A stretch of 21,610 nt of DNA from assembly GCA_017543265.1 (NCBI GenBank), contig JAFYGI010000020.1, positions 1 through 21,610 of the forward strand, read 5' to 3'. Source of the DNA: Bacillota bacterium. Its GTDB lineage: Bacteria; Bacillota; Clostridia; Lachnospirales; CAG-274. Below are positions 4,606 to 21,610 of the stretch, piece by piece (position 1 is the stretch's first letter; every line of letters starts with the position of its first letter). The translations under genes and the position numbers were made by a program. The notes below the pieces were generated by a model that did no database searches, was not told where the DNA came from, and saw nothing but the letters and a program-made list of their open reading frames with translations.

Positions 4606-4614
4606 TTCAGTAAT

Positions 4615-4776
4615 TTATAATGTTAGTTTACCATTTTCCATTTTTTCAAGAAAATATTTGTAACTATCTTTTGCTTCTTGTGGAGCATCAGGCAAAATAA
4701 TTACTTTCCCATTCTCATCAATATCCCACCAATTAGGGTCTTTGTACCAACATTCCAAATACCAATCACCGGTCAT
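4615..4776 (-). CDS. Small 53-aa ORF (MTGDWYLECWYKDPNWWDIDENGKVIILPDAPQEAKDSYKYFLEKMENGKLTL); possible orphan immunity-like protein. It is not in the supplied ORF track because it is under 60 aa.
   Basis: Hand translation of the rc of 4615-4776: ATG to TAA, in frame, AT-rich, GGGGG 10-14 nt upstream of the ATG. It ends 1 nt before repeat copy B. Trp/acidic-rich small proteins are common in toxin-immunity loci. Confidence 0.25.
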   Translation of the reverse strand: MTGDWYLECWYKDPNWWDIDENGKVIILPDAPQEAKDSYKYFLEKMENGKLTL

Positions 4777-4823
4777 AAGTAACTGCCCCCATCGCCATAC
4801 ACTAACCGCCCCCCCGTGTGAGC

Positions 4824-5519: not shown

Positions 5520-5521
5520 TA

Positions 5522-6928: not shown

Positions 6929-6932
6929 TACA

Positions 6933-7715
6933 TCACTGCCTTTCCGCAAAAAACGCTATAATTATTACCAAAACCACGGGTATCCCCACCGCAAGCCCCG
7001 CGGCGAGCCCCGTACTAAGCTTAAACACATACGCCAGCACCACAAACAGCAAAAGCGGCACCAGCAGGACAAAGGAAAGTATCTCTATTATCATTGACCA
7101 TACGCCGTTTCGCCAGACCGCATACCCAAGCAAAGCCGAGGCTGCGATAAAAATAAGCACGCACAGCGCGATAGACACATCCGCTCTTTCCTTTAAGACA
7201 AAAAATACTATTGCGGGGATTATCATGCCCACCGTCACCGCGTAGGGTATGCGGCGCTTGCCTGCCGCAGCAAGCTCGACACGGCATTTTTGCGCCATTT
7301 TGTCCGCATCCTTCACGCCGCCCAGCTTTTCAAACTCCGCCAAGGCCTTTGCATAGGCCTTTTTTTCATAATGTGCAACAGCCGCGGCATAGGCCTTTAT
7401 CTGCCCAGCCCTGCTTTGTCCGTCCTTGCAAAGACGCATAAGATCCTCGGCCGTTTCGGATGAACGGTGTACGCATTCCGCCGCCGCACTTTTGTACAGT
7501 ATCGCGGCCTCCTCGGCCTGTTTTACGCCGGGTGCATCCTGTGCAAGAAGCTCATTTGCCTTGTTAAGTTTTTCGATTATATGTATATATTCCTTGTAGT
7601 CGGCATCCAGATCCTCCAAAGACCAGCGGTTGCCGCAGTTTTCACATACACAGACCCCCGTCAGATAGTCGTTTGCAAGGTCGCCGCCGCATATCATACA
7701 TTTAAAAGCAGCCAT
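6933..7715 (-). CDS. Zinc-ribbon (CxxC...CxxC) plus TPR-like plus C-terminal multi-TM protein; YdjG-like first gene of the SPFH operon
   Basis: N-terminus MAAFKCMICGG...CVCENCG gives two CxxC pairs. Ala/Lys-rich helical middle. Hydrophobic C-terminal third. RBS GGAGGGTG before the ATG. Only a 4-nt gap to the next gene. Confidence 0.6.
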   Translation of the reverse strand: MAAFKCMICGGDLANDYLTGVCVCENCGNRWSLEDLDADYKEYIHIIEKLNKANELLAQDAPGVKQAEEAAILYKSAAAECVHRSSETAEDLMRLCKDGQSRAGQIKAYAAAVAHYEKKAYAKALAEFEKLGGVKDADKMAQKCRVELAAAGKRRIPYAVTVGMIIPAIVFFVLKERADVSIALCVLIFIAASALLGYAVWRNGVWSMIIEILSFVLLVPLLLFVVLAYVFKLSTGLAAGLAVGIPVVLVIIIAFFAERQ

Positions 7716-7763
7716 TTTGCACCCTCCGAATTAAAATATTACTCTCCATATACTATTGTTTTA

Positions 7764-7792
7764 ATTTTACAATAAAATCCAAAAATAGTCAA
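7764..7792 (-). promoter_or_regulatory. Candidate sigmaA promoter for the zinc-ribbon/SPFH operon: TTGACT-17-TAAAAT on the minus strand
   Basis: rc of 7787-7792 is TTGACT, and rc of 7764-7769 is TAAAAT, with a 17-nt spacer. About 50 nt upstream of the ATG at 7715. Confidence 0.4.
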
Positions 7793-7866
7793 TATTTTTG
7801 TTCAAATTTAACCATAACCCGTACAGGCCGATATATTATCCGGGCTTGGCGTGGGTATTATTCGCC

Positions 7867-7895
7867 TTGACAAGTTCCGACACAGCTTATATAAT
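7867..7895 (+). promoter_or_regulatory. Consensus sigmaA promoter TTGACA-17-TATAAT
   Basis: TTGACA at 7867-7872, TATAAT at 7890-7895, exact 17-nt spacer. About 30 nt upstream of RBS AAGGAGAA (7913-7920) and the ATG at 7926. Confidence 0.6.
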
Positions 7896-7925
7896 ATTTT
7901 TGACAACTTTTTAAGGAGAAATAAA

Positions 7926-8888
7926 ATGAAAGAATACAGTTTTCTGTTTTTTATGCTGGGCTCGTTTACGGGCATATATTATCACGCCGTTATGAATGCG
8001 ATAGTCAGCACGCTGTGCGGATTGGATTTTCATTTTTTATCGGTATTTGACAAAACAATTGTAAAAAAAGACGGCAAAATAATCGTAAGTAAGCGTCCGT
8101 TCAAGCTTTTCCAATGTATTACGGTATTTGAAAAAAAGGGTGCTTCCGTAATGTATATGTCGCTGGTGCAGTTTGCCGTTATGGCAGTTGAATTTATGCT
8201 GGCGCTTACGGGCATGGTCGGCATTTGTTTATTGCCCTTTAGCAATATCAAGCTTGATCTTATTTATTTTATGGCAGGCATAATGTTTTTTGTTGTACAA
8301 TTTTTTATTGTGGACAGCGCATCAATGCTGTTTAAAAACAGAAGCATCGACGGCTATACACGCTATATTATAAAAAAATTGCAGGCAGACGCAGATATAA
8401 ACAGCCTGGATATCACACTTTCCAAGGCAGAAACGCTTAAAAAGCCCGACAAGCTGCTTAACCTTTTTTATGTTTTATGCTTTTACAAAATGCTTTACAA
8501 TAATGAGATAAATGAAATGGCGCCGCTTATGGCCAAAATCGAGAAGTATTTAACAAGCAAAACTCTCTCGCCGCTTCAAAAGGAAACGACGCTGTATGCG
8601 ATGGCGCAATACTGCTGCCTGCCCGAAACGGCCGCAATTGAAGAAAACAAGGATAAGGCCGCGGCCTGGTTTTCAAAATGGGCAAATACGGCAAAAAAAC
8701 CGTATGACAGCGCCGAATACCGTCTGGCCGCCTATTACAACTATTTTATAAAAGCCGATGTGCAGCAGGCAAAAAAATACCTTGACCTTGCGCAGGACAG
8801 CAGGCCAAGCTATGCTGGCACATTGTTTGAGACAGAACTCAACGATATGATGATAAAAAGACTAAAAAAGATACTTGACAACTTGTAA
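7926..8888 (+). CDS. Membrane-anchored TPR-like hypothetical protein, 320 aa. The start is reassigned from the track's 7851 to 7926.
   Basis: A perfect promoter and RBS precede 7926. The 7851 ATG lies upstream of the -35. The N-terminal half has about 5 TM helices. The C-terminal half is helical-repeat-like (AEYRLAAYYNYFIKADVQQAKKYLDLAQ). Confidence 0.6.
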   Translation: MKEYSFLFFMLGSFTGIYYHAVMNAIVSTLCGLDFHFLSVFDKTIVKKDGKIIVSKRPFKLFQCITVFEKKGASVMYMSLVQFAVMAVEFMLALTGMVGICLLPFSNIKLDLIYFMAGIMFFVVQFFIVDSASMLFKNRSIDGYTRYIIKKLQADADINSLDITLSKAETLKKPDKLLNLFYVLCFYKMLYNNEINEMAPLMAKIEKYLTSKTLSPLQKETTLYAMAQYCCLPETAAIEENKDKAAAWFSKWANTAKKPYDSAEYRLAAYYNYFIKADVQQAKKYLDLAQDSRPSYAGTLFETELNDMMIKRLKKILDNL

Positions 8889-8893
8889 ACAAA

Positions 8894-8930
8894 ACGGGAC
8901 TGTCGCGTTGATTGAACACGACAGTCCCGA
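8894..8930. terminator. Bidirectional intrinsic terminator between convergent genes: GGGACTGTCG-(13 nt)-CGACAGTCCC, flanked by T-runs on both strands
   Basis: 10-bp GC-rich perfect stem, followed by GAATTTTTAT on + and GTTTTGTTTAC on -. Confidence 0.65.
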
Positions 8931-8934
8931 ATTT

Positions 8935-10374
8935 TTATCTTGCAGCCTCCGTCAGCGCCGTTATACCACCGTCGGGCTTTGTCATCATAACATTTGTGCC
9001 GCCGTAGCGCAGCTTATACACGGTATGGTTTGAGGTATACTCCTCCTGTGAGCCCTCAAAATGCAGACCCGTTATTTTTTTGCCGTCCTCGTCGTAAACC
9101 GAGTAATCATAGCCGAATTCGTCAATATAGATCAGGCCGTCGCTGCCTGTATAATAGGCCCGTATGCCGTCCTCACCCGTTTCGTCATCTATTACTGTTT
9201 CCTCTTTTTCAAATTCAAGCACTACTTTTTTGCTGTCGGGGTATTCCACGATAGAATTGCCGTCCTCGTTTCTGTAAACGCGGTATTTGTTGCCCTTATC
9301 ATCGGAATAGTTATCGTAGCTGTCACTCATAGCTATATCCTGCGAGGGATTGCCGTCCTCGCCCAAAAGCACAAGCCAGCCGTTGGCAATGCCGTAGCCG
9401 CGGTCGTCCTCGTCATAGTAGATGTTTTTATACTCTCTCTCACAGGGCACATATTCGCCGTTTGAAAGAATAAAGCCGCTATCGGGGCTGCCGTCTTTGC
9501 CATACACATAAACCAGCGTTTCCGCATTTTCATTGACATAGATAATATGGGTCTCATCCTTTTGGGTATATTTTTCGATAAGGTCGCCGTCGCTGTTTTT
9601 TACGCAAAGAAAAGCCTCTGCACCCACCGTTGAAAATATATAGCTGTTTTCGTTATCATCCTGAAGGCTGCCGTTTTCGTCATAGGCCAGCTTTACCTCG
9701 GTGCCGTCCGCCTTTACAAGGCTTCGCTCATCATCGTCATATATGACCAGACAATCCCTGCCTGTCTTGTCGATATAAACATACTCATACTTATTAAGGG
9801 AGCTGTAGGTCTCCAGAACATTATCATTTTGGTCACAGATGACAATATCATCGTCCTTTTCGTAATATATCCTGCCATCCTCGCCGATATGGGGAGTGCC
9901 CATGTCCACGGGCTCCTCCGCGATAGTATCGTCCTGTTTGGAGATATAAATGGATTTTGTCTCGGCATCCCATTCCGTTTCGTAGCCAAAGCTCTCCGCA
10001 ATAAAGCGCAGGGGGAGCATTGTCCTGCCGTCTATTATGGCAGGTGCGACATCAAGTGTTTCCGTAGTGTCGTTCAGTACCGCCTCCGTGCTGTCTATCG
10101 TCAGTTCGATATGGCATTTGCCCGAATCCAGCAGCGCCGTTTTGGTTTCGGCCGCCCAGTCCACATATCCGCCCAGCGCCTCCACAACTGCCCTGACAGG
10201 CACAAAGGTACGGTCATTTATTATAACGGGCGGGGTGTCTATCTCGGTCTCCTCGCCGTCAACATACATGATTTGGTCGCCTATTGTGAGCGCTATGCCC
10301 GTATCCGCATATACGCCCGTGCAAAAACCTGCGGTAAGCAATACGGCTGCCGCCGCAAACAATTTTTTCTTCAT
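8935..10374 (-). CDS. Secreted protein with two copper-amine-oxidase-N-terminal-like (stalk) repeats and a long D/E/Y-rich C-terminal region
   Basis: Signal peptide MKKKLFAAAAVLLTAGFCTGVYA. Motifs RTFVPVRAVVEALGGYVDWAAETKT and RTMLPLRFIAESFGYETEWDAETKS are typical of the Cu_amine_oxidN1 fold. RBS AAGGGGA. Confidence 0.55.
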   Translation of the reverse strand: MKKKLFAAAAVLLTAGFCTGVYADTGIALTIGDQIMYVDGEETEIDTPPVIINDRTFVPVRAVVEALGGYVDWAAETKTALLDSGKCHIELTIDSTEAVLNDTTETLDVAPAIIDGRTMLPLRFIAESFGYETEWDAETKSIYISKQDDTIAEEPVDMGTPHIGEDGRIYYEKDDDIVICDQNDNVLETYSSLNKYEYVYIDKTGRDCLVIYDDDERSLVKADGTEVKLAYDENGSLQDDNENSYIFSTVGAEAFLCVKNSDGDLIEKYTQKDETHIIYVNENAETLVYVYGKDGSPDSGFILSNGEYVPCEREYKNIYYDEDDRGYGIANGWLVLLGEDGNPSQDIAMSDSYDNYSDDKGNKYRVYRNEDGNSIVEYPDSKKVVLEFEKEETVIDDETGEDGIRAYYTGSDGLIYIDEFGYDYSVYDEDGKKITGLHFEGSQEEYTSNHTVYKLRYGGTNVMMTKPDGGITALTEAAR

Positions 10375-10460
10375 AATGCTGTCCCCTTTCTTTGATACAG
10401 ATATCTGTTAAATATATTTTAACAGTTTTTTATCCCACTTTCAAGCCCCATATCGTTCTT

Positions 10461-10502
10461 GGAAAAAAAGAACTGCTGCCGCAGTATACACCGCAGCAGC
10501 AG
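10461..10502 (-). terminator. Intrinsic terminator of the hydrogenase operon
   Basis: Minus-strand RNA GCUGCUGCGG-UGUAUA-CUGCGGCAGC (10-bp stem including 2 GU pairs) followed by AGUUCUUUUUUUCC, immediately after the hydA stop. Confidence 0.6.
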
Positions 10503-10514
10503 CTTTATGACATT

Positions 10515-12281
10515 TTATCTAAATCCCTCTCTTGCTGCGTAGGTAGTATGCAGCAGTTCGTGTGCCTTGTGCGAATTGGGCTCGCCGAGGAAGTCCTCGT
10601 AAAGCTTGATTATCTGCGGATTATTATGCGACTGACGGATCACCTGACGCTCGTCCTCCGAATAAAGAGCCTTTGCGCGTCTTTCCTTATAGGTCTGCAT
10701 AATATCGTCGGGTTCGTTCTCCATAAAGCACTGTCTTACATAAGGCTGACCACCGCCGTTTATACAGCCGCCGGGACAACCCATTATCTCGATAAAGTGG
10801 TACTTGCTCTTGCCTGCACGGATATCGTCAAGAAGCACCTTTGCGCTCTTCATACCCGAAGCGATGGCAACATTTACGACTGTGCCGTTTATATCGAGGC
10901 TTGCCTCTCTTATACCAGCATCATGGCCGCGTACCTCGGTAAACTCTATGTTTTCCTTCTCCTCGCCCGTAAGCTTGAAGTAAACGGTTCTTAAAGCAGC
11001 CTCCATAACGCCGCCCGTTACGCCGAAGATAACGGCTGCGCCCGTATAATCGCCCATGATATCGCCGTCCCAGTCCTCATCGGGCAGACGGTTGAACATG
11101 ATACCCGCACGCTTTATCATCCTTGCAAGCTCTCTTGTGGTGATAACTGCGTCAACATCTCTTACGCCGTCTACCTCCATCTGCTCGCGGTCTTTTTCAA
11201 ATTTCTTTGCCGTACAGGGCATTACCGAAACGACAAATACGTCCTTGGGGTCGATGCCGTTTTTCTCTGCCCAATAGCTTTTTATTACTGCGCCCTGCAT
11301 CTGGTGCGGGGACTTGCATGACGAAACGTGCGGCAAAAGGTCGCCGTAGTTCATTTCGGCATAGTTTATCCAGCCGGGTGAGCAGGATGTTATCATCGGC
11401 AGTACACCGCCGTTTGTAATTCTTCCCAGAAGCTCCGTGCCCTCCTCCATAATGGTAAGGTCGGCACCGAAGTTTACGTCGTATACCCTGTTAAAGCCAA
11501 GTCTGCGCATAGCTGCGATCATTTTGCCGGTAACGGGTGTGCCGACGGGGTATCCGAATTCCTCGCCCAAAGCGGCTCTTACAGCGGGTGCTGCCTGTGC
11601 GATAACGCACTTGCCTGCCTTGAATGCCTCGTCGATCTTGTCTATTTCGCTGTGCTCCATAAGTGCGCCTGTAGGACAGACATTTACACACTGGCCGCAC
11701 TGTATACAGGGCGAATTCCGGAAGCTTCTGTCCTGTGCGGGTGCAACAAAGGTGTTGAAGCCGCGGTTCTCAAAGCCGAGTATACCGAGACCGTGCGCAT
11801 TTTTGCAGCGCTCTATACAGCGGCCGCAGAGTATACACTTGGATGTATCTCTTACAAGGCCGGGTGCCAGTCTGTCGATATGTGCCTCGGTGTGTACGCC
11901 CGCAAATGCGTTGTCGCGTGCGCCCGTAAGCTTTGCAACGTGCAAAAGCTCACATCTGCCGTTTTTGTCACACTGCTGGCAGTTCTGGTTATGGTTTGAC
12001 AAAAGAAGCTCTACACTCTCGCGTCTTGCCTCAAGTGCCTTGGGAGAGTTTATCTTTATCTCCATACCATCGGATACGGGATAAACACAGCTTGCCACAA
12101 GACCTCTTGCGCCCGTAGCCTCAACAAGACATACGCGGCAGGAGCCCTGATTGCACTCACCGTTGTTAAATTCGCAAAGTGACGGTATCTCATAGCCGCA
12201 GGATCTTGCAGCCTGTAAAATGGTCATGCCTTCCTCGACCTGATAGGAGATACCTTCTATTTTAATATTTATTTTAGCCAT
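10515..12281 (-). CDS. hydA: [FeFe]-hydrogenase catalytic subunit, M3-type group A (HydA/HndD-like): N-terminal 2Fe-2S, His-ligated 4Fe-4S, two ferredoxin-type 4Fe-4S clusters, and an H-cluster domain
   Basis: H-cluster motifs L2 MPCTAKKFE and L3 EIMGCPGGCINGGGQP are present. The L1-like motif reads TSCSPGW. Also CxxCxxCxxxCP x2 and HxxxCxxCxxxxxC. RBS TAGGGGGT. Confidence 0.85.
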   Translation of the reverse strand: MAKINIKIEGISYQVEEGMTILQAARSCGYEIPSLCEFNNGECNQGSCRVCLVEATGARGLVASCVYPVSDGMEIKINSPKALEARRESVELLLSNHNQNCQQCDKNGRCELLHVAKLTGARDNAFAGVHTEAHIDRLAPGLVRDTSKCILCGRCIERCKNAHGLGILGFENRGFNTFVAPAQDRSFRNSPCIQCGQCVNVCPTGALMEHSEIDKIDEAFKAGKCVIAQAAPAVRAALGEEFGYPVGTPVTGKMIAAMRRLGFNRVYDVNFGADLTIMEEGTELLGRITNGGVLPMITSCSPGWINYAEMNYGDLLPHVSSCKSPHQMQGAVIKSYWAEKNGIDPKDVFVVSVMPCTAKKFEKDREQMEVDGVRDVDAVITTRELARMIKRAGIMFNRLPDEDWDGDIMGDYTGAAVIFGVTGGVMEAALRTVYFKLTGEEKENIEFTEVRGHDAGIREASLDINGTVVNVAIASGMKSAKVLLDDIRAGKSKYHFIEIMGCPGGCINGGGQPYVRQCFMENEPDDIMQTYKERRAKALYSEDERQVIRQSHNNPQIIKLYEDFLGEPNSHKAHELLHTTYAAREGFR

Positions 12282-12296
12282 AGTTATTACCCCCTA

Positions 12297-14180
12297 TTAT
12301 TTCTTGGAAATTGCCTTAAGACGGCAAACACTTATACATGAACCGCATTTTACGCACTTAGTCGGGTCGATGGCAAACGATGCCAGCTTATGACCCTCCG
12401 CAATATATTCCGTGCGCTGGATACATCCAACGGGACAGCCCTTCGCGCAAAGGCCGCAGCCGATACACTTGTCGGGGTCGATGTAGTATTCCATAAGGTT
12501 CTTACAGACATGAGCAGGACATTTCTTGTCAACTATGTGCGCGATATACTCATCCCTGAAATGCTTAAGGGTAGAATCAACGGGATTTGCTGCTGTCTGG
12601 CCGAGCGCACACAGGGAGTTGTTCTTGACCGTGCGGCTTAATTCCTCAAGCGCATCAAGGTCCTCCATTGTACCCGTGCCCTCCGTTATGCGGGTAAGTA
12701 TCTCAAGCATACGCTTTGTACCGATACGGCAGGGAGAACATTTACCGCAGGACTCGTCACAGATAAATTCCATATAGAACTTTGCAACATCGACCATACA
12801 GTTGTCCTCGTCCATAACGATAGCACCGCCGGAGCCCATCATGGAGCCCTTTTGTACAAGGTTGTCGAAATCTATGGGTTCGTCAAGGAACTCTTCCGTA
12901 AGGCAGCCGCCCGAAGGACCGCCTGTCTGGATGGCCTTGAACTTTTTGCCGTTGGGGATGCCGCCGCCTATATCGTATATAAGCTCGCGCAGCGTTGTAC
13001 CCATGGGTACCTCCACAAGGCCTACGTTGTTTACCTTGCCGCCGAGGGCAAATACCTTTGTGCCCTTTGATTTTTCCGTACCTACGGAAGCAAAGCTTTC
13101 GGCTTTTTCCCTTAAAATATAAGGTACGCAGGCAAGTGTCTCAACATTGTTTATGATGGTGGGCTTGCCCCAAAGACCCTTTACTGCAGGGAAAGGCGGA
13201 CGGGGACGCGGCATACCGCGCTTACCCTCGATAGAGTTAAGAAGCGCTGTTTCCTCACCGCATACAAAGGCACCCGCACCAAGACGGATATGACAGCGGA
13301 AGCTGAAATCCGTGCCCAGTATATTATCACCCAGAAGACCCATTTCCTCGGCCTGCATAATAGCTATCTTTAATCTGTTTACGGCAATTGGATATTCCGC
13401 ACGCACATAGAAATAACCGTTTTGTGCGCCGATAGCATAGCCCGCTATCATCATACCCTCTATTACCGCAAGAGGATTACCCTCTAATATACTTCTGTCC
13501 ATAAATGCACCGGGGTCGCCCTCGTCACCGTTACAGACAACATATTTTTCGTCGCTTTCGGAGTTGAATGCAAACTGCCACTTTCTGCCCGTGGGGAAGC
13601 CCGCACCGCCGCGGCCGCGAAGACCTGCCGCAAGCACCTCGTCGATGACCTCCTGTCTGGACATTGAAAGTGCACGTTCAAGACCCTTGAACGCACCCTC
13701 GCCCAAAGCCTCGTCTATATTTTCGGGGTCGATAACGCCGCAGCCGTGCAGCGCTACACGCCTTTGCTTTTTGTAGAAATTGATGTCGTCCTGCTTGGAT
13801 ACCTTTTCACCCGTTGACGGTTCCTCGTAAAGCAGTCTTTCAACGACCTTGTTGTTGATGATGTCGCTTTCTATTATCTCCTCAACATCGTCAATGGACA
13901 CAAGGCGGTAAAGCGTATCCTCGGGATATATCTTGACAAACGGACCCTGCGAGCAGAAGCCGAAGCAGCCCACCTGATTTACGGTCGCCTTGTCGGCAAT
14001 GTCCTTTTCCTCCAGTACAGTGCGGAATTTGTCGGCTATCTCCTTTGAGTTGTTGGAAAGACAGCCCGTACCACCGCAAAGCACGATATGTCTTTTTCCG
14101 TCCGCACCGGTAAGCTTGTCGGAAAGACATTTTGAACAGGCGGAGATCTTTTCGTTGAGTTTTTCCTTGTTTGTTATCAT
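12297..14180 (-). CDS. hydB: NADH-binding NuoF-like subunit of a bifurcating-type hydrogenase (HydB/HndC). The start is reassigned to ATG 14180, inside the track's longer ORF.
   Basis: GLRGRGGAGFPTGRKW (the NuoF FMN/NADH site), an N-terminal thioredoxin-like 2Fe-2S, and C-terminal 2x CxxCxxCxxxCP. RBS AAGGAGG before 14180. The ATGA overlap with hydC argues for this start. Confidence 0.85.
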   Translation of the reverse strand: MITNKEKLNEKISACSKCLSDKLTGADGKRHIVLCGGTGCLSNNSKEIADKFRTVLEEKDIADKATVNQVGCFGFCSQGPFVKIYPEDTLYRLVSIDDVEEIIESDIINNKVVERLLYEEPSTGEKVSKQDDINFYKKQRRVALHGCGVIDPENIDEALGEGAFKGLERALSMSRQEVIDEVLAAGLRGRGGAGFPTGRKWQFAFNSESDEKYVVCNGDEGDPGAFMDRSILEGNPLAVIEGMMIAGYAIGAQNGYFYVRAEYPIAVNRLKIAIMQAEEMGLLGDNILGTDFSFRCHIRLGAGAFVCGEETALLNSIEGKRGMPRPRPPFPAVKGLWGKPTIINNVETLACVPYILREKAESFASVGTEKSKGTKVFALGGKVNNVGLVEVPMGTTLRELIYDIGGGIPNGKKFKAIQTGGPSGGCLTEEFLDEPIDFDNLVQKGSMMGSGGAIVMDEDNCMVDVAKFYMEFICDESCGKCSPCRIGTKRMLEILTRITEGTGTMEDLDALEELSRTVKNNSLCALGQTAANPVDSTLKHFRDEYIAHIVDKKCPAHVCKNLMEYYIDPDKCIGCGLCAKGCPVGCIQRTEYIAEGHKLASFAIDPTKCVKCGSCISVCRLKAISKK

Positions 14181-14683
14181 AAAGCCTCTGCCTCCTTTTT
14201 CTTTTCTTCTGCAGCAAGGTACTGTGAAACCACCTCGGTTACCTGTGAAACGGACATTTTGGGGTATACCTTGCCGTTTATGCTTACAGCAGGTGCAATA
14301 CCGCACGCACCGATACAGCGAAGAGCGTCGATAGTGAACAAGCCGTCCTCCGTTGTTTCGCCGGGCTGTATTTTAAGCACCTCGCAGAATTTGTCGATAA
14401 CCTGCTGTGCGCCCTTTACATAGCACGCCGTACCAAGACAGCAGCCAATAACGTACTTGCCCTTGGGCTCCAGCGAGAAAAACGAATAAAATGTTACAAC
14501 GCCGTATATCTCGGCAACGGGGATACCCGTCTTTTGTGATACTATCTCCTGCACCTCCAGCGGGATATAGCCATATTCGTTCTGGATATCGCTCAATATC
14601 ATCATAAGAGGCGTTTTGTCGTCGATGTGTCTGTCGCAGATCTCCGCGATCTTTGCAGCCGCGGCTGCCTGAAGTTTAGCCAT
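14177..14683 (-). CDS. hydC: NuoE-like 2Fe-2S thioredoxin-fold subunit (HydC/HndA)
   Basis: CCLGTACYVKG...CIGACGIAP is the NuoE 2Fe-2S signature. RBS GGAGGAG. Translationally coupled to hydB. Confidence 0.8.
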   Translation of the reverse strand: MAKLQAAAAAKIAEICDRHIDDKTPLMMILSDIQNEYGYIPLEVQEIVSQKTGIPVAEIYGVVTFYSFFSLEPKGKYVIGCCLGTACYVKGAQQVIDKFCEVLKIQPGETTEDGLFTIDALRCIGACGIAPAVSINGKVYPKMSVSQVTEVVSQYLAAEEKKKEAEAL

Positions 14684-14717
14684 GTTGCTCCTCCTTTAGA
14701 GTTCCCTTCACGGGGAC

Positions 14718-14735
14718 TTGTGAAAAATTTAACAT
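14718..14735. promoter_or_regulatory. Rex-like redox-repressor operator candidate, TTGTGAAAAATTTAACAT, in the hydC leader
   Basis: Close to the Rex consensus TTGTGAA-N4-TTCACAA or TTGTTAA-N4-TTAACAA (1-2 mismatches per half-site). It is 35 nt upstream of the hydC ATG and downstream of the putative promoter. Confidence 0.35.
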
Positions 14736-14780
14736 AAAATACCCGCAGAATTGACCCTCCGCAATTCCACATTCCATATT

Positions 14781-14809
14781 ATTTTATAATATTTTGACTG
14801 TAAAGTCAA
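14781..14809 (-). promoter_or_regulatory. Candidate hyd promoter, TTGACT-17-TAAAAT on the minus strand. Its -35 lies inside the perfect palindrome TTGACTGTAAAGTCAA (14794-14809).
   Basis: Hexamers read from the rc of 14804-14809 and 14781-14786, with a 17-nt spacer. Confidence 0.3.
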
Positions 14810-15059
14810 TAAACCAAATCAATTTAGCATAATGCACAAATAACAATTTTGTCAACTTTGTATAAAATACGCGGTTTTTCGCGCCGCAAACAACAGGGAT
14901 ATTTGCGAAAATATGTTTATTAACGGCGTTTTTTGTCTAAAACGCCACCCGTAAAACGCTTGGCAAAACCCACCGCACACAGCAGCGCAAAATAATAACG
15001 GATACGGCTCCCGAGGGCTGTTTTCCTACCCAAAGGAGCTATATCCGCTGTTGTATACA

Positions 15060-16976
15060 TCACATTTTATCGGGCGCGATATCTGTTTCGGGTACTGCCT
15101 GCGCATCCGCAGCTTCATCTGCCGCAGGTGCCTGCTCGCCTTTTATGAGCACCCTTAACTCGTCGCCTGTTATTTTTTCCTTTTCCATAAGCAACTGCGC
15201 CGCTCTGTCAAGGACATCCATATTTTCTTTAAGCGTTTTTTCCGCAAGCTCGTACGCCTCGGAAACAATGCGCTTTATCTCATCGTCTATCATTGTTGCG
15301 ACATTCTCGCTGTAGTTTTTGGTATGGCCGAGATCTCTGCCGAGGAATACTTCCTGATTTTCATCCGCATAATTTATCGGGCCTAATTTTTCACTCATAC
15401 CAAACTGGGTCACCATAGCCCTTGCAAGCTTGGTAGCCTTCTGGATATCGCTGACCGCACCGGAGGAAAGCTCGCCTCCGACAAGCGTTTCCGCTATTCG
15501 TCCGCCCAAAGTTGCCGCTATAGTCTGCTCGAGTACCGTTTTGTAAAGATAGGGCTCCTCCTGCGGAACGGGCATGGTATAACCGCCCGCCTGTCCCACG
15601 GGTATTATGGATACCATATGCACGGGGCTTAATTCCGACAGCTTCTCAAAAAGTATCGCATGGCCTATCTCGTGATATGCCGTAAGACGCTTTTCTTTTT
15701 CAGTTATGACACGGCTTTTTTTCTCCGTGCCGTATGACACCTTTATAAACGCCTGTCTGATATCCTTATCCTCTATAAGCTTTTTATTCTCACGCGCCGC
15801 AAGAAGAGCGGCCTCGTTGAGCAGGTTTTCAAGGTCGGCTCCCGTAAAGCCGGGAGTAGTTTTTGCAACCTCTTCAAGATCCACATCGGGGCCTATCTTT
15901 TTGCCCTTTGCGTGCACCTTTAATATTGCCTCGCGTCCCTTTACATCGGGCGGAGCTACCACTATCTGCCTGTCAAAACGTCCCGGGCGCAGCAGCGCGG
16001 GGTCGAGTATATCGGGGCGGTTTGTTGCCGCGATAACTATAACGCCCTCGTTTGCACCGAAGCCGTCCATTTCCACAAGCAGCTGGTTAAGTGTCTGTTC
16101 ACGCTCGTCATGTCCGCCGCCGAGACCTGCGCCGCGCCTTCTGCCGACCGCATCTATCTCGTCGATGAAGATAAGACAGGGCGAATGCTTTTTTGCGTTG
16201 TCGAAAAGATCGCGCACGCGCGATGCGCCGACACCTACGAACATTTCCACAAAATCGGAGCCCGATATCGAGAAAAACGGCACATTTGCCTCGCCCGCAA
16301 TAGCCTTTGCAAGCAGGGTCTTACCCGTACCCGGGCTGCCCACAAGCAGTACGCCCTTGGGTATTCTTGCGCCTATCTCAACGTATTTTTTAGGCTCTCT
16401 GAGGAAGTCCACTATCTCCGCTACCTCTGCCTTTTCCTCGTCAAGACCCGCAACATTGTTGAATGTCACGCGCTTTGCGGAATCCGTCATCATTTTTGCA
16501 CGGCTGCGGCCGAAGTTCATCACCTTGCCGCCTCCGCCGCCGTTCATCTGCTGGAAGATAAACATAAGCAGCATTATTGCAATAATGATAGTTACTATTA
16601 TACTGATAAACGAAAAAATGCTGTTTGCCTTGGACGGGGACACGGTTTTTATTGTCACCCTGCCCTCACGGCCGCTTTCGCTTACTTCTTCCAGAAACTG
16701 CGATACGGACGAAATGGACACCCTGTGTTCCTCACCGTCCTTTGACTTTACCACGGCTGTACCCGCATCGTTTACATCCGCATCTCTTTGCAGGGTGACC
16801 GTATCCACAACACCCTCGTCTATGTCCCTGAGCATTGTGCTGTAGGTGTATTCCGCAGCCGACTGCGACACCGACGTACCCTGTATCATCCTTTTGCCGA
16901 CTACGGCAACAACTATAATAAGTACGATAGTACAGTATAGACCCAGTATCCTGAACATATTGTTTTTATTATTCAT
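15060..16976 (-). CDS. ftsH: ATP-dependent zinc metalloprotease FtsH
   Basis: N-terminal TM helix, Walker A GSPGTGKT, Walker [13 protein letters not shown] region, zinc site HEIGHAI. RBS AGGAGGAAACC. Confidence 0.9.
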
Positions 16977-17009
16977 TGGTTTCCTCCTGTTTTAATATCC
17001 TATCTTTCA

Positions 17010-17038
17010 ATGATACCACAATTGTATTGCATATTCAA
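17010..17038 (-). promoter_or_regulatory. ftsH promoter candidate: TTGAAT-17-TGgTATCAT (extended -10)
   Basis: rc of 17033-17038 is TTGAAT, and rc of 17010-17015 is TATCAT, with an upstream TG. Confidence 0.45.
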
Positions 17039-17105
17039 GTAAAACTTTTTTGAGTTTTTGCAAGTTTAAGTTTTGCCGCATTTATCATAGCTTTCGGAAA
17101 AAAAG

Positions 17106-17134
17106 ATTGAAAAATCCGCCGCACTGTGATACAA
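17106..17134 (+). promoter_or_regulatory. Divergent promoter TTGAAA-17-TGaTACAAT (extended -10) for the small membrane protein pair
   Basis: TTGAAA at 17106-17111, TG at 17126-17127, TACAAT at 17129-17134. RBS AAAGGAGG at 17151-17158. ATG at 17167. Confidence 0.55.
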
Positions 17135-17166
17135 TATTTTTATAAACATACAAAGGAGGTCTATTT

Positions 17167-17541
17167 ATGGCTTGTTTTATTGTACCGACAGCCGAGGCCA
17201 TAGTTACCACAGCTGTTAAAAAGGCCGCAGACAAAAAGGCAGAAAAAACAAATACACAAATAACAAATCCCTACATTAAAAGGATGAATTGGCTAAACAA
17301 TATGCTTTGGGGCGGCAGCGCACTGCTTGCATTTGAGCATGTATGGCACGGCGAAGTCACACCCTGGTTCCCGTTTTTGACAAACGCAGCCAACCCCGAC
17401 GATCTTGCGGAAATGCTTACGGAAATGGCAACATCCGGCGTTGCGATGGCCGTACTGGTAAGCGTTGTTTGGGCCGTGATGGTGGCTGTTTCGCTGCATA
17501 TCGAAAAAGCGGGCGAAGTTAAGGGGGCGAAGGCAAAATGA
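17167..17541 (+). CDS. Small hypothetical membrane protein (124 aa)
   Basis: Strong promoter and RBS. Basic N-terminal segment, then two hydrophobic helices. Confidence 0.5.
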   Translation: MACFIVPTAEAIVTTAVKKAADKKAEKTNTQITNPYIKRMNWLNNMLWGGSALLAFEHVWHGEVTPWFPFLTNAANPDDLAEMLTEMATSGVAMAVLVSVVWAVMVAVSLHIEKAGEVKGAKAK

Positions 17542-17849
17542 CATTGCTTATAACCGTATTTGCCGCTGTGGTCTCCACCGCAGTATGGTATACAAGACCC
17601 GACAGCAAAATGAAGACGGGTATGCTTGCCCTTATGTACTGGGGCGCGGCACTTATGTGGCTTGTAGACGCAGTTGTGGAATATTTCGAGGCAGGAGCGG
17701 AGTTTTTTGCACCTGCGGCAGCGGACATGGTAAACGATGCCTTTCTCGGTGCATCCGCAGTGGCGCTCGGCCTTGTGATATGGCTTATCGCCGTACTTGT
17801 AAAGGACCCCAACGGCAAGATAAAGGCCGCCTTGACAGGCAAAAGCTAA
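17538..17849 (+). CDS. Small hypothetical membrane protein (103 aa), possible paralog of the upstream gene
   Basis: ATGA overlap with the preceding gene. Similar layout (MxWGxxAL...E...F...D...VA..LV.W..AV.V). Confidence 0.45.
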   Translation: MTLLITVFAAVVSTAVWYTRPDSKMKTGMLALMYWGAALMWLVDAVVEYFEAGAEFFAPAAADMVNDAFLGASAVALGLVIWLIAVLVKDPNGKIKAALTGKS

Positions 17850-17857
17850 ACCGACAC

Positions 17858-17886
17858 AAGCGGCTTTTACAGCCGCTTATTTTTTT
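17858..17886 (+). terminator. Intrinsic terminator: AAGCGGCT-TTTAC-AGCCGCTT plus ATTTTTTT
   Basis: Perfect 8-bp stem and a 7-T run; sits between the small membrane genes and larC. Confidence 0.6.
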
Positions 17887-17897
17887 CAGGAGAACTT

Positions 17898-19094
17898 ATG
17901 AAAACACTTTATATAGAATGTAATGCGGGTGCGGCGGGTGATATGCTGATGTCGGCGCTGTCCGAGATACACCCCGACCCCGACGGCTTTGCGGCGCGTT
18001 TTAATGCCGCGGGCATCCCCGATGTAAGGCTTGAGCGCGGCAAAGGCACGCAAAACGGCATTGTCGGCACACAAATACATATTCTGGTAAACGGCAGGCG
18101 GGAGAACGGGGATATGCACGAACACCACGGGCATTCCCATACGCACGGCGGGCACCACACCCATACCTCACTTTCGGACATACAGGCGCTTATCGCGGGG
18201 CTTGATGTAAACAAAAATGTCAAGAAAAATGCAGCCGCCGTCTATGACCTGCTTGCACAGGCAGAGGCACACGTCCACGGCTGTGAGATAAGCGACATAC
18301 ACTTTCACGAGGTAGGCACGATGGATGCCGTGGCGGATATAGTGGGCGTTTGTATGCTTATTGACGAGCTGGGCGCGGAAAATATAATCGCCTCTCCCGT
18401 AAATGTGGGCAGCGGCTTTGTCAAATGCGCACACGGCATACTGCCCGTACCCGCCCCTGCGGCGGCTCATCTACTGTGCGGCATACCAATATACAGCGCA
18501 GGCGGCGAGGGTGAGCGCTGTACCCCGACAGGTGCCGCACTTTTAAAGCACTTTGTCAAAAAGTTTATGCCCATGCCCGTTATGACGGTGGAAAAATACG
18601 GCTGCGGTGCAGGCACAAAGCAATTTGAAACGGCAAATATACTGCGTGTTTTTTTTGGTGAAGCAAAAGACAGCACCGACGAGATATTCGAGCTTTGCTG
18701 CAACATTGACGACATGACGGGCGAGGAAATGGCCTACGCCTGTGAAATGCTGTTCAAGGCAGGTGCAAGGGATGTTTTCACCGTCCCCGTATATATGAAA
18801 AAAGGCCGTCCCGCCGTAATGCTTTGCTGTATCTGCACACAAGACGAAAAGGATGTGCTTGCAAAGGAGATATTTCGACAAACAACGACCATAGGCATCC
18901 GTGTACACAAATGCGGACGTTATGTACTGAAGCGCAGCGAGGAAAGCGTTTCCACGCCCTGCGGCGATATCCGTGTAAAGACCTCCGAGGGCTATGGGGT
19001 CACACGCCGCAAGCCCGAGTTTGAGGACATAAAAAAAGCCGCCGAAGCAAGCGGATTGTCCCTTTACGAGATAAAAAGGGGGCTTGACCTATGA
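17898..19094 (+). CDS. larC: LarC-family (DUF111) nickel-pincer-cofactor nickel insertion protein
   Basis: N-terminus MKTLYIECNAGAAGDM is the DUF111/LarC signature. A His-rich stretch HEHHGHSHTHGGHHTH (Ni-binding) and a C-terminal LarC2-like domain. RBS CAGGAGAA. Confidence 0.8.
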   Translation: MKTLYIECNAGAAGDMLMSALSEIHPDPDGFAARFNAAGIPDVRLERGKGTQNGIVGTQIHILVNGRRENGDMHEHHGHSHTHGGHHTHTSLSDIQALIAGLDVNKNVKKNAAAVYDLLAQAEAHVHGCEISDIHFHEVGTMDAVADIVGVCMLIDELGAENIIASPVNVGSGFVKCAHGILPVPAPAAAHLLCGIPIYSAGGEGERCTPTGAALLKHFVKKFMPMPVMTVEKYGCGAGTKQFETANILRVFFGEAKDSTDEIFELCCNIDDMTGEEMAYACEMLFKAGARDVFTVPVYMKKGRPAVMLCCICTQDEKDVLAKEIFRQTTTIGIRVHKCGRYVLKRSEESVSTPCGDIRVKTSEGYGVTRRKPEFEDIKKAAEASGLSLYEIKRGLDL

Positions 19095-19972
19095 GCGCAC
19101 GGACGCAGAACAGGCAAAAGGCCATTATATACATTATAAGCGCAGCCTTTTTCTTTGCCGTGATGAACTGCTTTGTAAGGCTTTCGGGCGAGCTTCCGAC
19201 CCCGCAGAAAAGCTTTTTCAGAAACTTTATTGCCTTTATTATCGCTGTGTTTGTGCTGATAAAAAGCGGTGAAACACAGCGGCCGAAAAAGGCCGATATC
19301 CCCTACTTGTTTGTACGCTCCGCGGCGGGCACGATAGGCATACTGGGCAATTTTTATGCCGTGGATCATATGTCGTCTCTGTCGGATGCGTCGATGCTGA
19401 ACAAAATGGCACCGTTTTTTACGATAATTTTTTCGTATCTGATACTGCGCGAAAAGCCCAGACTTTTTCAGGGCTTATGCGTTGTTGCAGCCTTTGTCGG
19501 CAGTTTGTTTATAATCAAGCCGTCGCTTGATTTCAGCCGTTCCCTGCCCGCGCTTATCGGGCTTTGCGGCGGATTGGGCGCGGGGCTTGCCTACACCTTT
19601 GTACGCATACTTTCGGGGCGCGGTGTGGCAGGCTGCTGGATAGTGCTGATATTTTCGGGCTTTTCGTGTGCCGTCACCCTGCCCGTCCTTATTGCCGACT
19701 ATACGCCCATGTCATCAAAGCAGATAATGATGCTGCTGGGTGCGGGCATAGCCGCAGCGGGCGGACAGTTTTCCGTAACGGCGGCCTACTCCAACGCACC
19801 TGCCAAGGAAATATCCATATTCGACTATTTTCAGATAATATTTGCGGCACTGCTGGGATTTTTCTTCTTCGGACAAATACCCGATGGCTACAGCCTTATA
19901 GGCTATGTTATAGTCATAGGCGCTTCCGCCGTAATGTACATAGGCAATAAAAAAGAGAGGCCGCAGCACTAA
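19091..19972 (+). CDS. EamA/DMT-superfamily transporter (10 TM)
   Basis: Two-fold hydrophobic repeat typical of EamA. ATGA overlap with larC. Confidence 0.7.
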   Translation: MSARTQNRQKAIIYIISAAFFFAVMNCFVRLSGELPTPQKSFFRNFIAFIIAVFVLIKSGETQRPKKADIPYLFVRSAAGTIGILGNFYAVDHMSSLSDASMLNKMAPFFTIIFSYLILREKPRLFQGLCVVAAFVGSLFIIKPSLDFSRSLPALIGLCGGLGAGLAYTFVRILSGRGVAGCWIVLIFSGFSCAVTLPVLIADYTPMSSKQIMMLLGAGIAAAGGQFSVTAAYSNAPAKEISIFDYFQIIFAALLGFFFFGQIPDGYSLIGYVIVIGASAVMYIGNKKERPQH

Positions 19973-19985
19973 GCTCCGGCCTCTC
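19955..19985 (+). terminator. Weak intrinsic terminator: GAGAGGCCG-(13 nt)-CGGCCTCTC, then a T-rich tail
   Basis: 9-bp stem overlapping the stop codon. The U-tract is delayed and imperfect. Confidence 0.35.
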
Positions 19986-20031
19986 GGACTGTCTTTTGAC
20001 ATTTTTTCTCATATATCGGTATCTGATCCGG

Positions 20032-20049
20032 GTTATCAAATTTGATAAC
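20032..20049. promoter_or_regulatory. Perfect 18-bp palindrome GTTATCAAATTTGATAAC (candidate operator or recombinase-binding site)
   Basis: 9-bp arms, exact reverse complement, in an intergenic AT-rich tract. Confidence 0.3.
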
Positions 20050-20152
20050 TTGACAGTATAAACTTCGCCGTGATGATCAGCCCTTCATAGCAAATGCGAA
20101 GTTTTTTATGAAAGTCAGTTTTTTACAGGAGTTTTTTAGGTACTTATTTATT

Positions 20153-20237
20153 TTTACGCAAATTTTACACAATTTTAATTTTTCGCACTAAATGGAGAAT
20201 TAAAAAATCTTTACGCAAATTAATCTTTTACGCAAAT
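20153..20237. repeat. Three exact direct copies of TTTACGCAAAT (20153, 20210, 20227), plus degenerate copies (20164, 20181). Possible arm-type recombinase binding sites or iterons.
   Basis: String matches. Copies 2 and 3 are spaced 17 bp start to start. They lie next to the integrase remnant. Confidence 0.5.
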
Positions 20238-20254
20238 CGTAAATTTGCTTATAT

Positions 20255-20380
20255 TTAATTAAGAAAGTTGCCTACTTTTGCAACTTCTTTTTGTTTCGTA
20301 TTCTGTAAAATATGTGTATAAGATACCGTTGTTGAATAATTGGCGTGACCCATTACGAGGGACAGGGGACGGTTCTTTGT
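20255..20380 (-). pseudogene. C-terminal remnant (about 40 aa) of a tyrosine recombinase/integrase, truncated at degenerate repeat copy C
   Basis: ...LVMGHANYSTTVSYTHILQNT... matches the XerC/D-type C-terminal box LGHxxxxTTxxYTH with the catalytic Tyr. Nothing upstream in any frame continues the fold. Followed by a hairpin AAGTTGC-N8-GCAACTT (20265-20286). Confidence 0.5.
20362..20380. repeat. Degenerate copy C of the 28-bp repeat core (ACAGGGGACGGTTCTTTGT, 1 mismatch to the copy-B core); the arms are eroded
   Basis: String comparison. One minus-strand frame reads RRQRTVPCPS*, which echoes LIQRTVPCMS. Confidence 0.6.
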
Positions 20381-20452
20381 CTCCGCCGGTAATTTTATAT
20401 TTTTCATAAACACATCTCTTTCAGCTCTTGAGTAAAACATTTATTTACAAAG

Positions 20453-20506
20453 TCATACAGGGGACAGTTTTGTGTATGAGTCACAGCAAAGCCTCCCCTG
20501 TATGAC
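20453..20506. repeat. Head-to-head degenerate copies D (20453-20480, TCATACAGGGGACAGTTTTGTGTATGAG) and E (20481-20506) of the 28-bp repeat. Together they form a 13-bp-arm palindrome GTCATACAGGGGA...TCCCCTGTATGAC.
   Basis: D differs from B at 3 core positions. The rc of E is GTCATACAGGGGAGGCTTTGCTGTGA (A-orientation). The outer 13-mers are exact reverse complements. Confidence 0.65.
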
Positions 20507-20511
20507 ATCCC

Positions 20512-21432
20512 TTAAAATTTCAGGTTCGTTTTTAACGCAGGTGTAATGTCAAAATCCTTATTCAAAAATCCTCTTGCTCTTGCGCCCATCACAAAGCCCA
20601 TTACATCATTTTGGGGCATATTCGGGATAATTGCAGGGAAAAGCGCAAATTTAGCCTGTCCGTAAATATCCGCAAGAATTTTTGCTTCTTTTATATCGGC
20701 TGCGTCAAAGTATTCCGACAGTATATTCCCCCAGATCTCAAGTGAGGTTTTGTATTCAAGCCCAATAAAATGGGGCGAACGTTCGGGAGTAGCCCGTCCG
20801 AACACCTCCATTACAAGGCAGGTCGCGCCGAGGTCAAGAAGCGGATGTCCGTAACCCATATCGGCAAGGTCGATAAAAAGAAGCTCGTCATTTTTTTCCG
20901 AATACATAACATTTTTAGGGTGAAAATCACCATGCATTACGGTATTTCGCTCATCAAGACAGTCATAAACCGCCATAAGCTTATCGGTCTCTTCTTTTGT
21001 AAGAAACTTCTCCATACGGCGCACACGCTCTTTGAACAAGGCGCGTACATCAACAAACTTATTTGTATCAACTTCTATCTTGTGTAGTTCCTTTAGCAAG
21101 CGCCCCATTCTTTTGCCCATTTCGGCTGCACGATCGGGATTTTCCCTTATAAATGCGGAAAGCGTTTTCGCACGCAGCATCTCATAGACCGCGCCGTAGC
21201 TTTCGCCCACCTTTACAACATCAAAAGATATGGCGGTAGGAACGCCCGCAACAAACGCATTTTTTGCAATACGCTTTTCCTCCTGTACAACTTCAAGCGG
21301 CACCCCGGGCGCAAAAACCTTGATTATCGTCTCATCATCAAGCCGATACACTTTTCCGACAGCACCCTCGCCTATAACTTCACAGCCTGCCACCGAAAGC
21401 TCACGCATTTTCTTTTCCTGTTCTTTTTCCAT
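20512..21432 (-). CDS. Aminoglycoside-phosphotransferase/choline-kinase-fold (APH family, PF01636-like) small-molecule kinase
   Basis: Gly-rich loop VIGEGAVGKVY, catalytic Brenner motif HGDFHPKNV, and IDLADMG (DFG-equivalent). RBS AGGAGGTATCG. Confidence 0.7.
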   Translation of the reverse strand: MEKEQEKKMRELSVAGCEVIGEGAVGKVYRLDDETIIKVFAPGVPLEVVQEEKRIAKNAFVAGVPTAISFDVVKVGESYGAVYEMLRAKTLSAFIRENPDRAAEMGKRMGRLLKELHKIEVDTNKFVDVRALFKERVRRMEKFLTKEETDKLMAVYDCLDERNTVMHGDFHPKNVMYSEKNDELLFIDLADMGYGHPLLDLGATCLVMEVFGRATPERSPHFIGLEYKTSLEIWGNILSEYFDAADIKEAKILADIYGQAKFALFPAIIPNMPQNDVMGFVMGARARGFLNKDFDITPALKTNLKF

Positions 21433-21610
21433 ATACGATACCTCCTGTCAATCTTTCCAAAACCGTATTGTCAATGATATTCGTATTCCGCAGAAATAAA
21501 TTTCTGCTACACAAGCCGAAACGCGCGACAAGCGCGTACAGGCTCATCCTCTGTAGGCTATACACGCCTTTGGCGTGTTACGCCATAACTCATAACCAAC
21601 GGAATTGCAA

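Follow-up and report, generated by a model that had tools for sequence, protein, structure and literature searches.

A short DNA hairpin repeat occurs in five copies, here called A to E, on a 21,610-nucleotide (nt) contig of a Bacillota bacterium of the Lachnospirales (GenBank assembly GCA_017543265.1, contig JAFYGI010000020.1, positions 1 to 21,610; this whole stretch is referred to as the window). We conclude with high confidence that these copies represent a short, non-autonomous hairpin repeat of the repetitive extragenic palindrome/terminal inverted repeat (REP/TIR) family, tied to a Y1 (HUH) transposase that resembles the REP-associated tyrosine transposases (RAYTs) and belongs to the type known as TIRYT. 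Very probably, a DNA-cleaving enzyme acts on the element. In related bacteria the repeat flanks the gene of an IS200-like (RAYT/TIRYT) transposase, which probably spreads it, and selfish repeats of this kind are already known. It is classified here as a TIRYT-type repeat that acts like a REP or a REPIN (a REP doublet forming a hairpin), and is not filed as a classical REP because its stem does not stand on a GTAG or CGTC head and because the associated proteins fall just below the RAYT equivalog score.

Five copies of one hairpin repeat in the window

The five copies belong to one element family and are located as follows, with '+' and '-' giving the orientation of a copy here and below.

Copy A: 1269 to 1296, minus strand; hairpin repeat of 28 nt, 100% complementary to B (repeat family I1)
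Copy B: 4578 to 4605, plus strand; hairpin repeat, '-' as read on the RHS coding strand
Copy C: 20355 to 20386, plus strand; lone hairpin repeat with core CAGGGGACGGTTCTTTG at 20363 to 20379 and stem GGGACAG/TTGTCTCC (repeat families D2 and I16)
Copy D: 20452 to 20480, plus strand; hairpin repeat GTCATACAGGGGACAGTTTTGTGTATGAG (repeat families D2, 88%, and I2, 90%)
Copy E: 20483 to 20509, minus strand; hairpin repeat with eroded loop and 3' arm (repeat families D7, 81%, and I13)
D/E doublet: 20452 to 20506, no strand assigned; head-to-head ('+ then -') doublet with 13-bp perfect outer arms, the equivalent of a dimer of the REPIN or bacterial interspersed mosaic element (BIME) kind

The canonical hairpin, as found in A and B, reads CTCATACAG-GGGACGGTTCT-CTGTATGAG, and the identity between these two copies ends precisely at 28 nt. 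A conserved asymmetric core of 17 nt, CAGGGGACGGTTCTCTG, makes up the top of the hairpin and stands on a basal stem of 4-9 bp that is genome-specific. With up to three mismatches allowed, this 17-mer occurs four times in the window, where 0.05 occurrences are expected and none of 100 shuffled sequences reached four, so that chance is excluded as the source of the copies. The original prediction, which was made from the letters of the window, had placed three further copies of the A/B element at C, D and E, and all three are found where it put them, in excess of chance. D is 88% identical to B over 32 nt, and E, in the opposite orientation, is 81% identical to A over 27 nt, with the left arm and GGGGA intact and the remainder eroded. 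The two abut head-to-head in a palindrome whose 13-bp arms, GTCATACAGGGGA at 20452-20464 and TCCCCTGTATGAC at 20494-20506, are perfectly complementary, as had been claimed; equally correct is the claim that E ends 5 nt past the stop codon of the kinase gene, as the palindrome arm ends at 20506 and the stop codon occupies 20512-20514. The core of C (within 20362-20380) mismatches that of A and B at one of 17 positions, but its stem, GGGACAG/TTGTCTCC instead of CTCATACAG/CTGTATGAG, is of a different type, also unlike those of D and E, and for this reason C may be a member of a sister sub-family instead of an eroded copy of the 28-mer.

When folded as single-stranded DNA, A and B form hairpins of -7.9 to -9.9 kcal/mol, with z scores of -4.7 for A and -6.8 for B (-9.9 kcal/mol), and the 65-nt unit of D and E forms one long hairpin of -16.5 kcal/mol (z = -5.9).

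Peptides encoded across the copies (QRTVPC, LIHKTVPCM and DVIQGRLCC) had been read as echoes of one ancestral site embedded in coding sequence. The translations are correct, but such echoes arise automatically because the copies share nearly palindromic nucleotides, and the notion of a coding-embedded site fails because the motif adjoins ordinary genes of all kinds in many phyla. In C, moreover, the QRTVPC frame is not the frame of the remnant open reading frame (ORF) that crosses the copy, which reads ETKNRPLSL. Read-through of the repeat accounts for several odd short ORFs and apparent start codons in the annotation.

An invariant core on covarying stems in many genomes

A scan of reference genomes for the exact 17-mer found it on at least 120 stretches of DNA, from Lachnospiraceae, Oscillospiraceae, Acutalibacteraceae, Syntrophomonadaceae, Atribacterota, Prevotella, Desulfovibrio, Treponemataceae and Bacillaceae, and 172 occurrences were aligned. 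In this alignment the core is invariant, and the flanking 4-7 nt vary from genome to genome yet stay complementary to each other (for example aagaCAG...CTGtctt, ggagaCAG...CTGtctcc and caatCAG...CTGattg); copies within one genome have their stem sequence in common. Across 140 distinct stems, the fraction of Watson-Crick pairs at positions 1 to 5 outside CAG/CTG was 0.94, 0.83, 0.71, 0.75 and 0.54, compared with maxima of 0.78, 0.42, 0.56, 0.49 and 0.38 after shuffling, and each stem position was filled by three to four pair types.

The arrangement of the copies is also uniform. Every close inverted pair in other genomes has the order '+ then -' (17 of 17, with no '- then +'), which is the polarity of D/E. 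Beyond the transposase gene described below, copies are present as singles, as doublets (the same 17 '+ -' pairs) and in several clusters. The element keeps to no particular kind of gene: when 150 ORFs lying no more than 300 bp from the motif were surveyed with Pfam, they fell into ordinary housekeeping families, and Y1_Tnp was the only recurrent family of relevance to the motif. A full-text search of the literature with the motif sequence returned unrelated primers only.

In related DNA, the repeat brackets the gene of a RAYT-like Y1 transposase

ORFs within 2.5 kb of the motif were clustered into families, and the motif clearly lies on both sides of the gene in only one of these, a protein of about 250 amino acids encoded at five loci. 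At these loci a '+' copy stands upstream of the gene in all five cases and a '-' copy downstream in four; the fifth, L071, has a '+' copy downstream instead. The protein matches Pfam family PF01797 (Y1_Tnp) with E = 1e-14 to 1e-16 and is IS200-like, and a close homologue carries the JGI label 'REP element-mobilizing transposase RayT'. More than 7,800 homologous proteins were retrieved at E <= 1e-20, and in 116 of the best 120 of these the HUH motif (GNHIH) and the tyrosine motif (RYIHQNP) occur together. The C-terminal extension of the transposase gives a weak helix-turn-helix (HTH) signal.

As a control that started from the protein, six homologues (P0021, P0088, P0125, P0032, P0124 and P0112) were chosen regardless of the motif, which brought in 12 loci. 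All six genes have a '+' copy about 50 nt before the ATG and a '-' copy 6-12 nt after the stop codon. Taking the 11 TIRYT genes together, the '+' copy is found about 50 nt upstream in every one, and the '-' copy follows the stop codon in 10, within 6-15 nt or overlapping the called stop. RAYT-like genes with flanking inverted repeats have been described as 'TIRtrons' and their enzymes as 'TIRYTs', with a shared GGGGWSAS sequence (Di Nocera et al. 2013, PMC3733652). Copy D reads GGGGACAG, an exact fit to this published consensus, and E has GGGGAGGC at the same position.

A metagenome scan with the window's own stem type returned three contigs. On the metagenomic loci L134/L135, which have the CATACAG stem of the window, a '+' copy is followed by 50 nt and by an ATG that opens the frame MPRTARKQSKTGVYHIMLRG..., which a '-' copy cuts after about 22 codons; this is a decayed TIRYT unit of the window's stem type. 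The L134 contig (240-2100) has a string of small ORFs, several without known function and one resembling an immunity protein, which hairpin copies (286-, 823+, 972-, 1015- and 2081+) set apart in a layout like that of a cassette array.

The more than 7,800 proteins above form a very large clade of RAYT-like transposases, for the most part unannotated, from Clostridia of gut and rumen. This clade has a cognate hairpin repeat, and the combination of an unusually conserved 17-nt core with covarying stems offers a clean substrate for testing how an enzyme reads DNA hairpins.

Copies at breakpoints of neighbouring genes

The genes and repeats next to the copies are listed below.

1238 to 1633, minus strand: truncated gene of a small secreted protein with signal peptide, two YD repeats and a T/E-rich linker; the CBM77-like C-terminal domain is missing from copy A on
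2650 to 4581, minus strand: 5'-truncated RHS fragment, comprising the end of the YD shell and the C-terminal toxin region; begins at copy B
20152 to 20237, plus strand: TTTTACGCAAAT repeated directly three times, close to the 3' side of the integrase relic
20255 to 20440, minus strand: 61-amino-acid ORF, integrase-like remnant whose N-terminal part reads through copy C
20512 to 21432, minus strand: APH-family phosphotransferase gene (the kinase gene), whose 3' end abuts the D/E doublet

The earlier view that the copies mark breakpoints is borne out at C, which sits at the 5' truncation point of the integrase-like remnant, and extends to A, B and, through an insertion sequence (IS) described below, D. 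Copy A lies exactly where the 131-amino-acid secreted YD-repeat protein loses homology to relatives of about 210 amino acids that continue into the CBM77-like domain, and the stem of B supplies the ATG of the RHS fragment, which starts in the middle of the YD shell. Fusion of the 131-amino-acid stub with the RHS fragment by inversion or circular permutation was rejected, as an A-B inversion does not join them and the stub belongs to the separate family of about 210 amino acids. Over its C-terminal 60 or so residues, the RHS fragment resembles the zinc-binding region of cytidine and dCMP deaminases at a score below threshold (PF00383, E = 1.4e-4, 22.1 against 25 bits). The 276-amino-acid ORF that follows it (1798-2628) has no Pfam match and may encode an immunity protein.

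In the 61-amino-acid ORF at copy C, the last 35 or so residues (...LVMGHANYSTTVSYTHIL..., with the pattern GH..TT..YTH) resemble the C-terminus of a tyrosine integrase. Searches of Pfam, of plasmids by tblastn and of the PDB gave no match, and tblastn against phages gave weak ones (E = 0.2-8), the informatively annotated features under the ten listed matches all being integrases. The ORF is a relic and not a functional recombinase, and its sequence resemblance points weakly to an integrase. The TTTTACGCAAAT repeats may be arm-type binding sites, or an att region, left behind by an integrative element that once lay between the EamA and kinase genes; a scan for a tRNA as att site found no tRNA in the window. 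Repeats resembling AGTTTTTTA lie beside them at 20100-20140. Another set of repeats, away from the hairpin copies, is formed by three 63-nt direct repeats (5534-5761; 68-83% identity, spacing 81-84 nt) in the gene of a 475-amino-acid Band_7 protein, which encode Cys-rich, zinc-ribbon-like units (WDCECGTK...FCPNCGKK).

Proposed mechanism and alternative explanations

By analogy with RAYTs and the enzymes of the IS200/IS605 family, the transposase would recognise the folded hairpin on single-stranded DNA, cut it and rejoin the strands. Such cutting and rejoining could spread copies and doublets in trans, and DNA beside a copy would occasionally be lost, either through the transposase itself or through recombination between copies. 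Deletion beside a hairpin would account for the truncated genes next to A, B and C. The D/E doublet, which is fixed and identical in six other samples, is a passive resident 3' of the kinase gene, where it may double as the RNA 3' hairpin of that gene.

Several observations weigh against this assignment. No transposase gene lies within the 21.6-kb window, and no intact transposase with the CATACAG stem was found among the best 120 homologues or on the three metagenome contigs, which yielded the decayed one only, on a contig that is possibly from another species. Three of the proteins score 79.1, 74.1 and 68.2 bits with the NCBIfam model for the REP-associated tyrosine transposase, a borderline result below its cut-off of 80. 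As DNA, C (z = +0.8) and D alone fold weakly. The consensus core, shared in this respect by A, B and C, reads GGGGACGG and is thus one base off GGGGWSAS (G for A at position 7). In addition, conservation resides in the loop and upper stem and not, as in classical REPs, in a GTAG or CGTC 'head' at the foot of the stem: neither tetranucleotide is present there, the bases on either side of the stem vary, and CGTC occurs inside the loop only. Finally, recognition of the hairpin, the position of cleavage, mobilisation in trans and deletion of adjacent DNA are all carried over from other Y1 transposases.

Three other explanations for the repeat were weighed. The original prediction had taken the 28-bp element for a recombinase target, and had raised the possibility of a large inversion between the two clusters of copies. 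In its full form, this explanation holds that the element is the target of a tyrosine or serine site-specific recombinase, with inversions of 3.3 kb (between A and B) and about 16 kb (between the clusters), and with gene breakpoints left by past recombination. The perfect 28-nt inverted repeats of A and B, the integrase-like relic that abuts C and the coincidence of copies with gene truncations are what it has in its favor. The arrangement of this region in other samples is not: a check of synteny for an inverted 4.8-20 kb block found the window's arrangement in all eleven contigs from other samples, and the inversion of about 16 kb was not seen in any of them. Four of these contigs contain B with both flanks as in the window, and seven contain the EamA gene, of which six reach the EamA-kinase spacer and do not differ from the window in any of the aligned 281 nt, a segment that takes in C, D and E, the seventh being too short; L002 (approximately window 1-12299) and L136 (approximately 11091-21524) are colinear with the window. 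As assemblies display majority arrangements, rare orientation variants could escape such a comparison. Furthermore, the integrase is a relic of about 40 residues without the catalytic core, no recombinase family recurs near the motif in the ORF clustering or the Pfam census, the motif is dispersed beside unrelated housekeeping genes in many phyla, and the protein that it brackets is a Y1/HUH transposase. We therefore regard a site-specific recombinase as extremely improbable, and what survives of the recombinase-target claim is that the element is very probably an enzyme substrate. For annotation of this contig, a false lead is removed, as neither a phase-variation switch nor an inversion of 16 kb was seen.

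That the hairpin acts chiefly as RNA, by stabilising 3' ends, terminating transcription or binding protein, with D/E selected as the 3' end of the kinase mRNA, is very unlikely. Such a role would fit the position of the long D/E hairpin 5 nt past the kinase stop codon, a covarying stem with a conserved loop as in structured RNAs, and a statement in Di Nocera et al. (PMC3733652) that classical REPs affect mRNA stability. Yet no Rfam family matched anywhere in the window at the gathering threshold, a search of 20200-20600 at E <= 1 returned only sub-threshold microRNA-type hairpins on D/E, and D/E was not called in a terminator scan. The copies stand in both orientations and form strictly polarised doublets at the DNA level, the partnership with a DNA transposase accounts for the conservation of the motif, and a role in RNA would be a secondary co-option that supplies no alternative origin. 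The remaining explanation would assign the hairpins to a DDE-type IS resembling IS1182 and IS5, as its preferred target, as its footprints or as a miniature inverted-repeat transposable element derived from its ends. In L001, a contig from one metagenome sample, such an IS of 1.6 kb (1343-2954; DUF772 and DDE_Tnp_1_6, with the transposase in two ORFs) lies within copy D, separating CAGG from GGAC, and half of a different hairpin stands on its other side. Either the DNA was truly rearranged, or the assembly is chimeric and was joined through a repeated IS. At L134:2094-2165, 75 bp from one end of an L001-type IS abut a hairpin, and at L034:3520-3975 the ORF of a DUF772-type transposase breaks off at a hairpin copy. 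Against this, the ends of the IS, GAGACCASTGAAAAAGTCC, are unlike the motif, occur in only one of 131 loci and are absent from the 120 genome loci, and the motif lies on both sides of Y1 genes in 10 of 11 cases with no DDE gene there, so that an origin of the hairpins in this IS is highly improbable. Targeting of the hairpins by an IS is compatible with a TIRYT-type repeat, and such insertions in REPs are documented, for example for ISPpu9 (PMC8450116). The hairpin copies may be an insertion hot spot for an unrelated DDE-type IS, going by one or two examples.

Additional features of the repeat copies

At several loci (L024:~2198-2260, L052:~1140-1190, L054:~3750-3800, L064, L104, L107 and L117), a complete '+' copy is directly preceded on its 5' side by a 'stutter' array, in which the left stem and CAGGG(G) are partially duplicated two to four times in tandem, for example gcgaacacagg-gcgaacacaggg-gcgaacaCAGGGGACGG... 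These arrays suggest that DNA was cut and rejoined several times near CAGG|GGAC, which is also where the IS sits in L001. Directly after the '+' copy 5' of the transposase gene, there is a TTGACA sequence resembling a -35 box (L143-L154, at about 1450-1465 or 3950-3965), which many solo '+' copies have kept (L022, L073, L099, L100, L118 and L125), and the dispersed copies may carry an outward-facing promoter element. In Bacillaceae and in one Bacillota metagenome-assembled genome, the 17-mer is found inside a longer conserved repeat, ggaagCAGGGGACGGTTCTCTGcttccttcgaacttcgaagaaagcg... (L058:4317-4370 and 6483-6540, L078:3238-3290 and L086:6527-6580), and the hairpin appears to be part of a larger element in these cases.

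Polymorphic-toxin genes beside TIRYT genes

Five of the six TIRYT genes that were sampled by protein alone adjoin RHS genes, PT-HINT genes or small genes of uncharacterised domains that possibly encode immunity proteins. The arrangements are as follows.

L152 and L153: TIRYT gene after a full-length RHS gene (2,176 and 2,125 amino acids), with a small ORF behind the RHS gene
L143/L144: two identical TIRYT copies bracket an RHS-CT gene and a 203-amino-acid ORF
L149: TIRYT gene precedes a PT-HINT fragment whose Hint domain starts at the '-' hairpin
L146: TIRYT gene precedes DUF7878 and DUF5071 genes

Fragments of toxin genes truncated at the 5' end begin exactly at a '-' hairpin both in L149 (2248-2310), where the first Cys of the Hint domain comes directly after the repeat, and in the window (4578-4614, minus strand), where copy B contains the ATG of the RHS fragment. 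Read on the coding strand, the A/B block of the window (1238-4605) consists of a '-' hairpin, the RHS-CT gene, the 276-amino-acid ORF, the truncated stub and a '+' hairpin, and has the same polarity as the segment between the two transposases of L143/L144.

A functional tie between the TIRYT/hairpin system and polymorphic-toxin loci in Clostridia, in which hairpins bounding RHS and PT-HINT cassettes would be recombined or cleaved as single strands and the system would be more than a selfish repeat, is on present evidence unlikely; if it were true, the hairpins would help to insert, truncate or swap toxin-immunity cassettes, loosely as integron attC sites do. The placement of TIRYT genes beside toxins may instead reflect accumulation, since some of the loci are orthologous (L144 and L152 share a FolD neighbour) and toxin islands tolerate mobile DNA. 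A tie of the motif to toxin genes across all of its copies was ruled out by the Pfam census of the 150 ORFs within 300 bp. A literature search for a link between RAYT and Rhs found no paper, its one apparent match being to the name of an author, and the repeated placement of TIRYT genes beside RHS toxin cassettes is a lead that deserves a proper survey.

Comparison with known systems

Invertons and shufflons resemble the window in that inverted repeats (A and B) flank a segment with a recombinase-like relic nearby, but here no intact recombinase and no orientation polymorphism were seen, and the repeat is dispersed genome-wide and across phyla. IS1397 is an IS that targets REPs. With ISPpu9 of Pseudomonas putida, which is reported to insert in REPs (PMC8450116), the insertion in L001 has in common that a DDE-type IS lies within a repeat (D, at CAGG|GGAC); it differs in the family of the IS, here DUF772 with DDE_Tnp_1_6, and in being seen in one or two examples only.

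IS200/IS605 elements such as IS608 and ISDra2 also have a Y1/HUH transposase that reads sub-terminal DNA hairpins, and they are the source of the single-strand mechanism proposed above. The end hairpins of IS608 lie on the same strand of a multi-copy autonomous IS, whereas the copies flanking the gene here are inverted, and most copies of the present repeat are solo or in doublets without a gene.

Closer parallels exist with the REP/BIME/REPIN elements and RAYTs of E. coli and Pseudomonas (PMC2817692, PMC3116915, PMC3479197), which likewise comprise short, imperfect and mostly intergenic palindromes, inverted doublets of fixed polarity, a stem that is uniform within a genome and a single Y1 gene flanked by inverted copies. 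The repeat described here has no GTAG/CGTC head, its proteins of about 250 amino acids have an extra C-terminal domain and fall under the RAYT cut-off, and its hosts are mainly Clostridia and other anaerobes, compared with Proteobacteria. The head-to-head preference of the doublets has been reported for the GTAG and CGTC families of REPs (PMC3733652). Among RAYTs, Group 1 is widespread, reaches Clostridia and has flanking 16-mers that are modestly repeated (Bertels et al. 2017, PMC5581495).

The nearest match is with the TIRtron/TIRYT systems (PMC3733652), whose repeats form moderately abundant families present, like REPs, as singles, dimers and clusters, and with the TnpA(REP)-like subclass 2.1, which has an HTH or DnaA-like domain at the C-terminus and to which most TIRYTs were assigned (Quentin et al. 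2018, PMC6006769). Shared with these are a bracketed RAYT-like Y1/HUH gene, GGGG-rich repeats, a C-terminal extension and moderate abundance as singles, dimers and clusters, and we infer that the proteins here belong to subclass 2.1. The present repeat differs from the TIRtrons in its core of 17 nt, identical across phyla and located in the loop and upper stem, with a basal stem that covaries between genomes. It also differs from the 2018 survey, in which no REP-like sequences were found around subclass 2.1 genes (PMC6006769), in that repeats are present at every gene examined here. The gene-bracketing architecture, that of REPtrons and TIRtrons, was already described in 2013, and the repeat of this window is a further member of the REP/TIR-type repeats.

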